A stretch of DNA of 64,000 bases from Candidatus Latescibacterota bacterium. Its GTDB lineage: Bacteria > Latescibacterota > UBA2968 > UBA8231. Shown piece by piece: positions 2,195-41,480 of this stretch (the first letter of the stretch is position 1; every line of letters starts with the position of its first letter). The position numbers and the translations under genes were made by a program. The notes under the pieces are model-generated. The model was given only the letters and a program-made list of their open reading frames with translations. It did not search any database and was not told the origin of the DNA. The DNA lies in contig OZ242214.1 of assembly GCA_965206595.1 (NCBI GenBank), positions 3,232,001 to 3,296,000 on the forward strand, written 5' to 3'.

Positions 2195-4369
2195 TGGCAT
2201 ATCGACGAGAGAGCAGGGTGGGGCCGGGACGACAACGAGTGGGAGAGGTGGAAGACCGTTGACTTGGAGTGTGCCGATGGCCTCTGGACGACCCGTCCAG
2301 GCGTGGGGGCAAATACGGTATCAGGCGGGGATCACCTGGACTTCTATCACTCGGTGGGGCCAAACGAGTCTCAGCAGTTCGGCGGAGACCTTGGCGGTGC
2401 CACCGATCTGTGGGACGGCAGCTCGGGCAGGCAGGATTTCACCCCGGAAACCAATCCCTCAACAGCTGGATACGAGCCCTCGCCAAGGCCGGCCGATAGA
2501 TTCCCGCAGCCCATAGAGAAAAACCAGAACGTTTTCAGTGGCATCTATATTGAAAACATCCGGCGGGAATCCGGAGACCCCCCTGGCGTTATGAAGTTTG
2601 ATGTTCGCTTTGCGCCGCTGGCTCCCAATAACCTGGAAGCCGCCATCGGCGAGGATCGGGTGCAGCTCAGTTGGACCAAGCCATCTGCCAACGGTGCGAC
2701 AGTTGCTTCAAACAAGGTGCGACATCGTCCCAGTGCGGACGCAAATTGGACGGCGGAAACACCGGTGGCAGCGCCTGACAATGACGATGATGTGGTAAGC
2801 CATACTGTCACGGGACTGACTATCGACACTCAGTACCTCTTTGAAGTGGCCGCCGTCAGCGGGAGACAAAATGAGTTGCCGGGCCTTGAGGGCTTATCCG
2901 TTAGCTACACGGCAACGACCCAACGGGCTATTAGACGGACCGAGGTCCCCCCCCTGGTTTTTGCGGAGATACATCAGGGTGCCGGGAGCTGGGAAAGCTA
3001 TGTGGACAGGTTTGCAAAAACCGGCTCGTATGATTGGTCGTTGGAAGGTCTCGATATGTTGCAGTTCCGACTGGATGAAACAGAGGGCGGGTTTCAGAAG
3101 TTGCATTTCAGGAACCCTCCCAACTATGAGTCTCCGGTAGACACACCTAAAGGCGACAATACCGAAGGGGACAATATCTACGAAGTGACGGTGAAGGCCG
3201 AACCGTCGGGTCCGAGCGGGGCAAGCAGTCCTGATCATCGTTATATGATCCCGGTTACCGTTGAGGTAACCACTGAAAATGAAAGGGGCAAAGTGACGGT
3301 GACGCCTGACCGTTACCAAGTGGACGTGGAGCTGACCGCGACCCTGACAGACCCCGACAGCCCTGACCCGAATAAACCCCCCTACCGGGATCAATTGGCA
3401 ATGGAAGCGGGGATCGGTATTCGACCATAATGGCACTCTCACCCGGAGTCCAGATCTTCCAGACCCGATTATGGGTGCCACTGATTCGCGGTACACTCCG
3501 GTTGCAGAAGATATTGGCTATGAACTGATTGCTGAAGTTGGCTATACCGATGGTCATGGCCCAGGGAAAAAGGCACTTTCGCCGCTGCCCGTCCCGCCGA
3601 AGGTGGTGGTTGATGTGCCCTCGGCGCCTGGAAACCTGCAGGCGGCTCCTCGCGACCGTTCGGTGCTCCTGACTTGGGAGTCAGCTTCGGACAACGGTTC
3701 AGCGCTTACCCGGTATGAGTATCAGCAGAGCACGGACGGGGGGACTACTTGGTCTCCGGGCTGGACAACGATTGCCCTTCCCGCGGACACGGATGCGGCC
3801 GATCTCACCGAGCATACGGTCACAGGGCTGACCAACGGCACCGTGTACACTTTTGAGGTGCGGGCGGTCAACGCGATCGGGGAGGGCGCTGCGGCGCAGG
3901 TTACCCTGCCCCCTGAGAACCTGCGGGCGCGATGGGTTTTCGCCGGTTCCCATCTTTTGGCGAGCCACAAAGCGCAGCTGACCTGGGACGATCCGGACGA
4001 CGCCCGCATCACGGGGTGGGACTATCGGCAGAAGGCGGGCGCTGCGGCCTGGGGTTCCTGGCAGCAGATAACCGGTAGCAGTGCGACTACGGTCACGCAT
4101 TCGGTGGAGGCCGTGCAAATCTGGCGGCCGTACCGGTTCCAGGTGCAGGCCCGTTACGGCCCCGGGACCGACGACACCGGGCCGGAATCGGCCGAGGCGG
4201 TGCTGACCCCCTTGCCGGTGTTCACCCAGCCGCCTGCGGTGATCCAGAATAGCGGCGACGGCAAGGCGCAGTTCAAGGTGGGGTTCGACTTCCCGGTCGG
4301 CGACGTGGATCTGCCCGACGGCCTGGTGCCGAATGAATACATCGAGATGGAGGTTACCAAAACCACGGC

Positions 4370-4402
4370 GGGGGGGGGGGGGGGGGGGGGGGGGGGGGGG
4401 GG
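4370..4402 (+). repeat. G33 homopolymer within coding sequence
   Basis: 33 consecutive G; reading frame changes across it (KTTA-G..G-VTTVSD). Confidence 0.9.
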
Positions 4403-4914
4403 TGACGACGGTAAGCGACTGGACGGCCCTATCGCAGCAGGGAATAGATGGGATACTGTCTGGCGTGGCCCTGGTAGCCGAATTCACGGACGGGGACCTG
4501 GCGCCGACCGAGGGTCTGGCTGGCGGGGGTACGGGACCGGACGATCCGACCGTTTCCCGTCAGGTGGTCGCGGTGATCCGGGTGTCGGGTCTGGACCCCG
4601 GGGCGACCTACGAATTCAAGGTGCGCTTTGTCCATCCGGACGGGGTGACGGAGTTGGAGCCGGCCTCGGCTTCGGTGTACGGGCTGCGTTGGCAGCGACC
4701 GACCGCCACCGCGGTGGCGTTGAGCTGGACGGACCCCAACAAGCCGTTTATCAGGACTTGGCAGTACCGTCAGCGGGCCGGCAGCGGCTCGTGGGAGCTC
4801 TGGCAGAACGTGAGCGACCCCGGCGCGACGACGACGACGCACCTGGTCTCGGGTCTCGAGGCGGAGGAGACCTACGAGTTCCAGGTGCAGGCGCTGGTGC
4901 CGGGGGGTCCGTTG

Positions 4915-5333
4915 GCCGAATCGTTCACGGTGTCGGCGGCTCCGAAGCCTTTGGTAGCGCCGGGTAACCTGCGGGCGGACCCCGGTCACGCGTCGATGAC
5001 GTTGCGTTGGGACGACGCGAACAATGCCCGCATCACCGGGTGGCAGTATCAGCAGCGGCAGGCCGGAGAGGATTGGGGAGCGTGGCAGCCGATCCCGGGC
5101 AGCACGGCGTCGACGACCTCGTATACGGTGCCGGACCTGACCAACGGGGTGAGCTACCGTTTCCGGGTGCGGGCCTTGGCCGGATCCCAGGAGGGTCCCC
5201 ACGGGAAGTCGGTGGGAGGTCCGCCCAACGGCTTGCGGGCCCAGGCGTTGAACGGCGCGGTAGAGCTGGTCTGGGCCGACCCGTCCGATTCCCGTATCGC
5301 GGGGTGGCAGTATCGGGTGCGCGAGGGTCAGGA
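4915..5333 (+). repeat. Core stalk repeat (AESFTVSAAPKPLVAPG...YRVRE), five near-identical copies
   Basis: Same DNA starts at about 4915, 16066, 25752, 31280 and 38793. Confidence 0.95.
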
Positions 5334-39600: not shown

Positions 39601-39737
39601 CGCCGCCGGATTTCGAGTCTCCGGGGGACGCGAACGGCGACAAGATCTACGAGATGACGGTGTCGCTCAGCGACGGCCGCCCGGACGCGGCGGCCGACAC
39701 CACGGTGTCGGTGCGGGTGCGTGTGACCGACGTCAAC

Positions 39738-40973
39738 GAGGCGCCGGTGGTGTCGGGAGTCAGCGACACCACGTTTGCCGAGAAGGGCTCGGGGGTGGTG
39801 GTCACGTATGCGGCCACCGATCCGGAAGGCACTCCCATCACGTGGACGCTGGGCGGCGCCGATGCGGACACGATGCGGCTGGATGCGTCGGGTCGGCTGC
39901 GTTTCCGGGCGCCGCCGCCGGATTTCGAGGATCCGGGGGACGCGAACGTCGACACCGTCTATGAGGTGACGGTGACGGCCGGCGACGGGTCGCTGTCGTC
40001 GCCCCCGTTTCCGGTCAGGGTGCGTCTGACCAACATCGACGAGCCGGGCAGGGTGATCCTGCCTGCGAGTCCTCAGGAGGGTCTGGCGTTTACGGCGGCC
40101 CTGACCGACCCGGACGGGGACGTGAGTGCGGAGCACGAGGAGGGGAATCCCGACGACGGGAACCGCGACGGGTGGGTGTTCGAGCGTCGGCGGCCGGCCG
40201 CGGGCGAGTCGTGGCAGCTCATCGCGGCCCCGGGTGGGGCTTCGGGGGCGGTGTCGACCTTGCCGGAGCTGAAGAGCTACACGCCGACGGCGGCCGATGT
40301 CGGTCACCTGCTGCGGGCGCGGGTGAGCTACCGGGACGGTCACGGTCCGAACAAGAACGCGCAGAGCGAGCCCACCGGGCCGGTGACGGCCCGGCCGCCG
40401 CCGCCGCCCGAGGCGCCGGTGGTGTCGGGAGTCAGCGACACCACGTTTGCCGAGAAGGGCGCCGGCGTGGTGGCGACCTATACGGCCACCGCCCCGGAAG
40501 GCACTCCCATCACGTGGTTGCTGGGCGGCGCCGATGCGGACACGATGCGGCTGGATGCGTCGGGTCGGCTGCGTTTCCGGGCGCCGCCGGATTACGAGTC
40601 ACCGGGGGACGCGAACGTCGACACCGTCTATGAGGTGACGGTGACGGCCGGCGACGGGTCGCTGTCGTCGCCCCCGTTTCCGGTCAGGGTGCGTCTGACC
40701 AACGTCGACGAGCCGGGCAGGGTGATCCTGCCTGCGAGTCCTCAGGAGGGTCTGGCGTTTACGGCGACCCTGACCGACCCGGACGGGGATGTGAGTGCGC
40801 GGCACGAGGAGGGGAACCCCGACGACGGGGACGGCGACGGGTGGGTGTTCGAGCGTCGGCGGCCGGCCGCGGGCGAGTCGTGGCAGCTCATCGCGGCCCC
40901 GGGTGGGGCTTCGGGGGCGGTGTCCCTTTTGCCGGAACTGAAGAGCTACACGCCCACGGCGGCGGATGTCGGT
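39738..40973 (+). repeat. In-frame tandem duplication, period 672 bp (cadherin-like + linker module)
   Basis: GAGGCGCCGGTGGTGTCGGGAGTCAGCGAC at 39738 and 40410; second unit incomplete. Confidence 0.9.
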
Positions 40974-41480
40974 CGGTCCGAACCCCGCACTTCCCGATAT
41001 ACTCGGAGGTGCGACATCTGCTGCGCGTGTGGCCTGGGTGCCAGCGAAAGCACGTGACCGGTGGAGCTCCAAGCCGTGCTGAATCAATGAAAGAACCGGA
41101 TAGAGGGGGGAAATGGCATGGCAAATCCTGAACGAGTCGAGCAACGCCCGACGGGGCCGCTTCCAAGGATTTCTCGCTGAGCACGGTACTCGGGGGGATC
41201 GTCACCGCCGTCTCCCTGGCCGAGGTCAACGAGTACGTTCCCACGGTAACCCTGCGCACCCTGGCACGAGACCTGGAGTACCTGGCCCTCGCCATCGGCG
41301 GCCTCGCTTTGGCGGTGATTCCGATCTGTTTGCTGATCTGTGTGGTGCGGCTCTGGCGTGCTGAAAGGAAAAGATGAACGACGAGGCTACGCGCTCGCTT
41401 TCTTCGCCCTGTCGAGGGTTATTGGAGGAACGAGCGCGAAGAGGTGCGCTTTCCATGCCGTCCCCCAGGAGGATAATGCC

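Follow-up and report, generated by a model that had tools for sequence, protein, structure and literature searches.

A probable lineage-specific cluster of genes for modular secreted enzymes, altered by duplication, rearrangement and extensive inactivation, in a Candidatus Latescibacterota genome

What kind of genetic system is an array in which large genes carry different N-terminal heads on similar stalks and alternate with small genes for secreted proteins? Such an array occupies the plus strand between 2.2 and 41.1 kb of a stretch of 64,000 nucleotides (hereafter the window; C1:3,232,001-3,296,000) in a Candidatus Latescibacterota bacterium, whose genome is a metagenome-assembled genome (MAG) consisting of one 7.05-Mb contig with 4.5% estimated contamination. 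An earlier note on this DNA had proposed a system of recombining cassettes by which exchangeable enzymes, each having a partner protein, are presented on a stalk. We consider it probable, at roughly 60%, that the array is instead a real, lineage-specific cluster of genes for modular secreted enzymes, which duplication, rearrangement and extensive inactivation have altered. We built the layout from lists of open reading frames (ORFs), self-BLAST and tblastn, and compared it with other genomes, among which G000 denotes the window's own genome, G103 a member of the same genus, and G107, G117, G129, G133, G139, G143 and G145 more relatives. The five large genes, here called A to E, do exist and have FN3 stalks (Pfam fn3, E values of 1e-9 to 3e-52), and they alternate with five small genes, three of a family that we call PLEVGN and two TolB-like. 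What the earlier note had observed is thus partly confirmed, and its interpretation is partly supported.

The building block of the array is a three-gene operon, conserved among related Latescibacterota and composed of a stalk gene with a B-type head, a PLEVGN gene and a giant M6 gene. By B-type head, we mean the head of about 430 residues found in gene B and its orthologs, which has an NHEGDWQ motif and no family assignment. The first gene of the operon encodes a signal peptide, this head, a short β-helix and an FN3/cadherin stalk. The second, PLEVGN, encodes a signal peptide, a LolA-like half-barrel, an HmuY-like β-domain and a C-terminal WGxLK-type tag, and the third a signal peptide, an M6-like zinc protease head, a long FN3/cadherin stalk and a C-terminal domain of the type IX secretion system (T9SS). 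The operon is intact in G139 (L043), with ORFs of 1176, 526 and 2809 residues, the first two of which overlap by 4 nt and the last of which ends in a FlgD_ig domain (E 1.9e-10). The same gene order is found in G129, in G145 and in a second locus of the window's own genome, 3 Mb away (locus 2, C1:252-276 kb), in which a kinase gene and small membrane-protein genes are followed by a B-type-head stalk gene interrupted by an insertion sequence (IS), then by PLEVGN and finally by an M6 giant that ends in FlgD_ig (E 2e-8) / Por_Secre_tail (E 1.4e-4). In G103, the order is stalk gene, TolB fragment, TolB, PL14-stalk gene, PLEVGN and giant, which is the order from C to E in the window. The giant of G103 has only a distant M6 domain (TIGR03296, E 6.5e-9). 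This stalk giant (L037 6730-8529), which lies at the syntenic position of gene E, has a distant M6-type head with an HEVGH motif, for which tblastn gave no match in the window's genome at E<1e-5; it may represent a natural head replacement at a fixed locus.

Within the window, only gene B of the five large genes has an intact open frame. Gene A is a remnant (2186-5391; end of the M6 head and stalk in tblastn frames 2, 3 and 1), whose 5' end is cut by an IS5-type element. The IS5-family transposase gene (1349-2200, minus strand; Pfam DUF4096 and DDE_Tnp_1) cuts off the 5' two-thirds of the head, so that M6 similarity begins at 2186, which corresponds to residue 367 of C. The frame of gene A switches at about 3358-3393, at a run of six C residues, and again at about 4319-4402, across a run of 33 G residues in the stalk (4370-4402), as seen by tblastn. 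This run is the longest of 13 G or C runs of at least 12 in the genome; another, 31 long, lies at C1:6079588. Gene A shares 35 nt with PLEVGN1 (5357-6886), which has no downstream M6 gene and in which the C-terminal tag is degenerate. Gene B (12151-16845) encodes the NHEGDWQ-motif head, a short β-helix-like part, an FN3/Calx-beta stalk and a chimeric tail with a TWGQVK tag. Since its last 20 or so codons resemble the 3' ends of TolB-like genes, B acquired its tag by fusion. Its stop codon overlaps the start of the tagged TolB-like β-propeller gene TolB1 (16842-17750; PD40 and TIGR02800, both below cut-off) within a shared ATGA (16842-16845). Overlaps such as the earlier note described are thus confirmed for A/PLEVGN1 and B/TolB1.

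Genes C, D and E, further downstream, are, like A, not intact. Gene C (22001-26579), which encodes an M6 head and stalk and lies immediately downstream of PLEVGN2 (20516-21907), has a frame change near 24877, at a run of four C residues, and from 26315 onward runs into a fused TolB-like sequence, the 3' portion of such a gene, with 93.7% identity to 27328-27655 within the tagged TolB2 gene (26712-27716). Gene D (29177-32031) encodes a PL14 head without a signal peptide, a β-helix-like part and a stalk. Its alignment with the G103 ortholog begins at residue 84 of the latter, which means that some 83 N-terminal residues, among them the signal peptide, are gone, and its frame changes at about 31429. 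Immediately upstream of it is an IS630-type transposase gene (28077-29165; Pfam DDE_3). Gene E, 6 nt downstream of PLEVGN3 (32205-33617), is split by a 1.39-kb IS4-type element (35282-36670, minus strand) into a 5' part encoding the M6 head (33624-35288) and a 3' part encoding an FN3 and cadherin-like stalk (36669-41057). Similarity to the locus-2 paralog stops at about 40976, leaving E without the distal repeats and the T9SS tail. Another copy of the IS4-type element, inverted and 99% identical, lies at 19064-20453. In all, six transposase genes or fragments were identified by Pfam inside the array span, and the genome holds 22 near-full copies of the IS5 type, 11 of the IS4 type and 13 of the IS630 type; in sequencing run X1, the IS630-type element has roughly 70 times the contig depth of the sequence on either side. 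Segmental duplication, IS insertion and deletion produced the array, which consists mostly of pseudogenes.

The stalks were said to be near-identical. Overall they are not, with 78-91% DNA identity over 0.75-1.9 kb, but local tracts reach 100%. As for cadherin, the Cadherin_4 match remains below threshold in the window (21.6 bits versus a cut-off of 25.1) and exceeds it in the G139 ortholog. The claim that the stalks recombine holds. When seven stalk copies were aligned and compared in 150-bp windows, the closest copy kept switching along the alignment. C and E are 100% identical in all windows starting at columns 1425-1800 (columns 1425-1950, about 525 bp) but only 65-80% identical proximally, and along the M6 stalk copy of locus 2 the nearest relative is first E, then D, C and B. 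In a PHI-type permutation test, 0 of 1000 permutations were as low as the observed value in each of three copy sets. The duplicate of 7200-16755 at C1:251882-262050 tells the same story, with identities of 92-99.7% in the kinase, 75-85% in the small genes and 72-79% in the head, rising to 96.5-99.1% from 13509 on. The B stalk is 99.1% identical in DNA to its locus-2 copy, far above the 72-79% of the adjoining head DNA. Within a genome, the stalks of B-type-head and M6 genes are 60% identical in G139, 74-91% in G145 and 75-82% in G000, whereas between genomes stalks are 30-36% and heads 42-55% identical; stalk likeness was thus higher within than between genomes in all three genomes tested. These contrasting patterns of stalk and head identity show that the heads are old paralogs with orthologs elsewhere, while the stalks evolve in concert. 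Repeated non-allelic gene conversion between paralogous FN3 modules, both in the array and with locus 2, maintains the likeness of the stalks.

As for the heads, three are M6-like and one matches PL14, and the assignment of the B head to a Vps62-like family is not borne out by family models. The heads of C and E, 49-53% identical to each other in protein sequence, match the M6 model TIGR03296 with E values of 1.6e-24 and 1.2e-22, although their scores of 87.3 and 81.2 bits fall short of the curated cut-off of 110.8. The TIGR03296 matches of this M6 subtype have E values of 1e-22 to 1e-27 and scores below the curated cut-offs, and the M6 model PF05547 gave 18.1 bits against a cut-off of 22. The HExxH motif is complete, with H236, E237 and H240 invariant in all nine aligned M6 heads. 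Gene A keeps only the last third of its M6 head and hence lacks the zinc motif. The head of gene D matches the PL14 family PF21294 (E 7e-13, 49.2 bits versus a gathering score of 27), as does its G103 ortholog (46.6 bits), and on these scores is a predicted PL14 lyase head. For the B head and four orthologs, neither Pfam nor NCBIfam gave a match at thresholds as loose as E<=10, and the Vps62 family PF06101 was carried by none of 78 B-head homologs. The sole lead towards Vps62 came from a protein language model, in which 24 of 30 neighbours were clusters with 24-38% PF06101 members. AlphaFold2 models of the B head, made from five sequences, were unusable (mean pLDDT 35.8), and a B-head profile searched against the sequences of the PDB found chance antibody matches only (E>=0.054). 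NPP1 (PF05630) was considered for this head and rejected, since the matches, in two of five orthologs, were not significant (E 0.063).

Does each head have a partner, as had been proposed? For M6 heads, the answer is largely yes. Outside G000, a PLEVGN match lies within 1.6 kb of 11 of the 14 N-terminally complete array-type M6 matches listed. Including G107, PLEVGN adjoins 12 of 15, being upstream and co-directional in eight and divergent in four, and the M6 genes without a nearby PLEVGN are G117:C178, G103:C11:697175 and G145:C13:723995. All 76 of 76 genomes also have another M6 paralog, beside which no PLEVGN match was found in the rows compared (G139, G133, G143 and G145). For the other heads, the proposal fails: the TolB-like subfamily occurs in only two of 76 genomes of the window's family, both of its genus, and the PL14 head is without a dedicated partner.

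PLEVGN itself is a small family without a Pfam or NCBIfam model. In a set of 5.8 billion proteins it accounts for 71 clusters, the sole name for which is "hypothetical protein", and among 1.84 billion representatives for 253 at E<=0.001. It is present in 31 of 168 genomes of the phylum and in 27 of 75 of the window's own family, and 27 of 28 loci with relatives found by profile are in Candidatus Latescibacterota MAGs. A PLEVGN profile gave no match at E<=1 to the sequences of the PDB, and Foldseek against the PDB gave weak matches of low TM only. A model of PLEVGN2 (mean pLDDT 73.8) contains a LolA-like half-barrel at residues 49-289 (Z 5-7.5), followed at residues 312-443 by a domain resembling HmuY/DUF4466 (Z 8.8-10.3; 10.3 for 4ei0, 9.4 for PinO and 9.1 for HmuY, these three over 115-117 residues). 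The axial heme ligands of HmuY are a pair of His residues. In an alignment of 16 sequences, residues 312-443 of PLEVGN have no invariant or near-invariant His or Met, and heme binding is therefore not implied. Complex prediction of the M6 head (residues 35-520) with PLEVGN2 (residues 48-463) gave a score of 0.00 and no verdict.

The small genes were also said to share a C-terminal motif. A [ST]WGx[VIL]K tag is indeed present in four of the five small genes and in B, but it is not a docking motif specific to the array, since it is found genome-wide. Among ORFs of at least 150 residues in the genome, 84 of 85 occurrences are within 40 residues of the end of the frame, and 84 ORFs carry it. The genome encodes T9SS machinery, including SprA (TIGR04189, 615 bits) and four PorV_fam matches over cut-off. 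A T9SS C-terminal sorting domain (PF18962 / FlgD_ig-like) was found in none of the five window genes.

IS elements, together with recombination of stalks with TolB-like genes, generated the truncations, fusions and chimeric tails of the array. We propose that, where intact, the encoded proteins would be exported by Sec and the T9SS, or by a pathway that reads the WGxIK-type tag. The repeat spacer would keep the degradative heads (protease and lyase) off the cell and may also bind host or matrix material. PLEVGN might act as an accessory of M6, binding a ligand or product or escorting the protease through the envelope, and stalk recombination may sometimes re-pair heads with tails. Several points weigh against this reading. 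Adjacency of PLEVGN and M6 was counted among the matches listed, besides which 121 further M6 matches exist, and the counts come from related genomes that are not independent. Of the PLEVGN-centred stretches, 12 of 20 (each of 20 kb) have no array-type M6 head, and in five of those 12 PLEVGN lies between a gene for a SurA-like peptidyl-prolyl isomerase (PPIase) and proteins of about 947 residues. Because the five large genes of the array have no T9SS tail, surface display has to be deduced from paralogs and orthologs. Of the four frame changes, three coincide with homopolymers (C6, G33 and C4), and some may be assembly or sequencing errors. Run X1 may be the source sample, in which case it lends no independent support. 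Finally, as sequencing contigs fail to bridge the repeats, the long-range order depends on the assembly, which is a single contig, and on the synteny shared with G103.

These last points lead to the possibility that the array is an artefact, its repeats misjoined in the MAG and its frameshifts mere sequencing errors. The homopolymers, the estimated contamination and the repeats of 0.75-1.9 kb with up to 100% identity would all fit. However, the genome is one contig, and the order of genes from C to E recurs in the independently assembled G103. We compared part of the window with contigs from four sequencing runs; gene A and its G33 run were outside the compared stretch. Eight listed X1 contigs match unique parts of the window with 0 differences, including at the frame-change site of gene C, which is crossed by a contig of depth 31 (24486-25242). 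A relative in X6, from another study, has one base fewer at 24877. None of the 15 joints listed, out of 48, has the IS removed from gene E. The IS insertions and the truncations associated with them are in any case no sequencing errors, and we regard an artefact as improbable. Equally hard to credit is a dedicated recombining cassette system, in which enzymes are exchanged on a common stalk and each head has an inhibitor, chaperone or docking subunit. Stalk recombination is real, at least three head types occur on similar stalks in both G000 and G103, PLEVGN is linked to the M6 head, and the recombination breakpoint in B, at about 13509, is near the junction of head and stalk. But orthologs of the heads are conserved in different genera, where the operon order is fixed, four of the five large genes are broken, the TolB-like partner is rare, the PL14 head lacks one, and the tag is genome-wide. 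There are no promoterless donor cassettes. Neither silent cassettes nor an invertase or reverse transcriptase were found, and the only recombinases were transposases, in nine ORFs that were scanned, the others being read as translations. The "reversed polarity" that had been seen in the array is the normal layout of a modular secreted enzyme or T9SS cargo, i.e., signal peptide, catalytic domain, spacer and sorting tail.

Selection could also have kept the stalks alike if matching FN3/cadherin modules join the enzymes into one surface complex, in which the untagged B-type-head and PL14 proteins ride on the T9SS-anchored M6 giant. This would account for the greater likeness of stalks within genomes, in three of three, and for the lack of a recognisable sorting tail in B-type-head proteins (of G139 and locus 2) and in PL14 proteins, while the M6 giant of the operon has one; the gingipain/HagA set (PMC5266723) offers a precedent. 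Yet even without selection, sequences as similar as these are expected to homogenise, the stalk domains are FN3/cadherin rather than gingipain-type adhesin, and binding of stalk to stalk is hypothetical. We find co-assembly unlikely, and slightly more so its fuller version, in which stalk homogenisation is functional, protease, lyase and B-type-head enzyme co-assemble in gingipain/HagA style in a T9SS-anchored complex, PLEVGN is a dedicated M6 accessory, and stalk recombination re-pairs heads and sorting tails.

By analogy, the nearest known system to our decayed cluster of secreted-enzyme genes is the gingipain/HagA set of Porphyromonas gingivalis. According to PMC5266723, hagA, rgpA and kgp have identical repeat sequences in their adhesin-encoding regions, HagA adhesin domains associate with gingipains, and gingipain adhesin modules recombine, with adhesin variants unlinked to catalytic variants. 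PMC10100897 describes cooperation between the hemophore-like HmuY and gingipain proteases. As in RgpA, Kgp and HagA, different catalytic heads precede repeated, near-identical C-terminal modules that recombine, a T9SS C-terminal domain is present (here in the locus-2 paralog and the G139 ortholog), and the modelled C-domain of PLEVGN has an HmuY-like fold. The two differ in that gingipains are C25 cysteine proteases with cleaved-adhesin domains, whereas here the heads are M6-like metalloprotease, PL14 and B-type and the modules FN3/cadherin, the accessory gene has a constant place immediately before the protease gene, and the host is an uncultured Latescibacterota bacterium. The principle of unrelated heads and common recombining modules on secretion cargo may thus work outside Bacteroidota, with other domains, in an uncultured phylum of the FCB group.

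Other known systems are more distant. With polymorphic toxins (CDI/Rhs), the array shares recombination, the presence of small genes nearby and an arrayed arrangement of large multidomain proteins that are secreted. Polymorphic toxins, however, have a constant N-terminus and a variable C-terminal toxin, in contrast to the variable N-terminal enzymatic head behind a signal peptide and the common C-terminal FN3 stalk seen here. Instead of a downstream gene for a cytoplasmic immunity protein, the neighbours here have a signal-peptide-like leader and a tag, PLEVGN is upstream of M6, and there are no orphan C-terminal toxin/immunity cassettes. The pilE/pilS and vlsE cassette systems have a single expression site and silent, promoterless donor cassettes, whereas each copy of the stalk here either has a head and a start of its own or is a remnant truncated by an IS. 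In the bab/sab surface-protein genes of Helicobacter pylori, non-allelic gene conversion between distant paralogs produces mosaic genes that evolve in concert; in the array, only the spacer of enzymes from different families undergoes conversion, and many copies are dead. The M6 proteins share with M6 peptidases (immune inhibitor A / PrtV) and with the NCBIfam "T9SS-dependent M6-like" proteins the TIGR03296 match, the HExxH motif and a secreted modular layout, but differ in their scores below cut-off, their obligate-looking upstream PLEVGN gene and their multi-kilobase FN3/cadherin tails. What seems worth following is the PLEVGN family, small, unannotated and tightly linked to one M6 metalloprotease subtype, which raises the hypothesis of an accessory protein, and the possible role of the homogenised stalks in co-assembly. 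The locus also carries a caution, which is that an eye-catching "array" can be mostly the IS-driven wreckage of a simple operon.

Eukaryote-like repeat proteins with FN3, cadherin, leucine-rich repeat (LRR) and WD40 domains are reported from sponge-associated bacteria (PMC3909097, PMC8163846 and PMC12993501). The window is similar, its FN3/cadherin giants standing beside LRR (41340-42623) and WD40 (43496-45325) proteins; as far as their abstracts show, those reports give domain counts, with no account of the operon, of PLEVGN or of homogenised stalks. The genes 3' of the array encode a plant-type LRR protein (41340-42623), a propeller-repeat protein, a metalloprotease-like/WD40 fusion (43496-45325) and a Big_1/invasin-like protein with a T9SS-type tail (45039-46511), so that 41340-46511 is a neighbourhood rich in eukaryote-like repeat proteins.

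The five contexts in which PLEVGN lies near a SurA-like gene are L033 4776-13617, L045, L046, L047 and L048, each with two signal-peptide proteins of about 947 residues without a Pfam family. The window's genome holds 21 members of this family, which often form tandem pairs near SurA-like genes, and one pair is about 5 kb from SprA (C1:6667535-6673031). We looked for clustering of tagged ORFs with this family and dropped the idea, 8 of 84 being within 10 kb versus a random mean of 3.5 and a maximum of 11.

Upstream of gene B, where the duplicated segment begins, the array span contains a gene for a hybrid histidine kinase/response regulator (7114-9681, minus strand; Pfam GAF, PAS, HisKA, HATPase and Response_reg). 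The locus-2 copy of this kinase gene (C1:251882-253683) lacks about 380 bp (7824-8205 in the window) and has broken frames; one kinase copy is probably a pseudogene. A transposase fragment (9374-10276, minus strand; Pfam DDE_Tnp_1_4) and the small membrane-protein genes of the conserved neighbourhood (10397-12041) follow, the first of which is split (10397-10771 / 10746-11303) and ends in LSAVTKLRF. Proteins of about 300 residues ending in GLSAVxKLRF, for which no Pfam family was found, recur 5' of B-type-head stalk genes (window 10397-12041; L001 3745-4647; L034, L037 and L052), and their terminal aromatic residue suggests an outer-membrane β-signal. Between TolB1 and the first IS4-type copy is an IS481-family transposase gene (17807-19108, minus strand; Pfam rve and LZ_Tnp_IS481). 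Further downstream, the minus strand encodes a protein of 1180 residues (49317-52859) with type I restriction R-subunit/SWI2-SNF2 helicase domains and a C-terminal Peptidase_S24 (LexA-like) domain.

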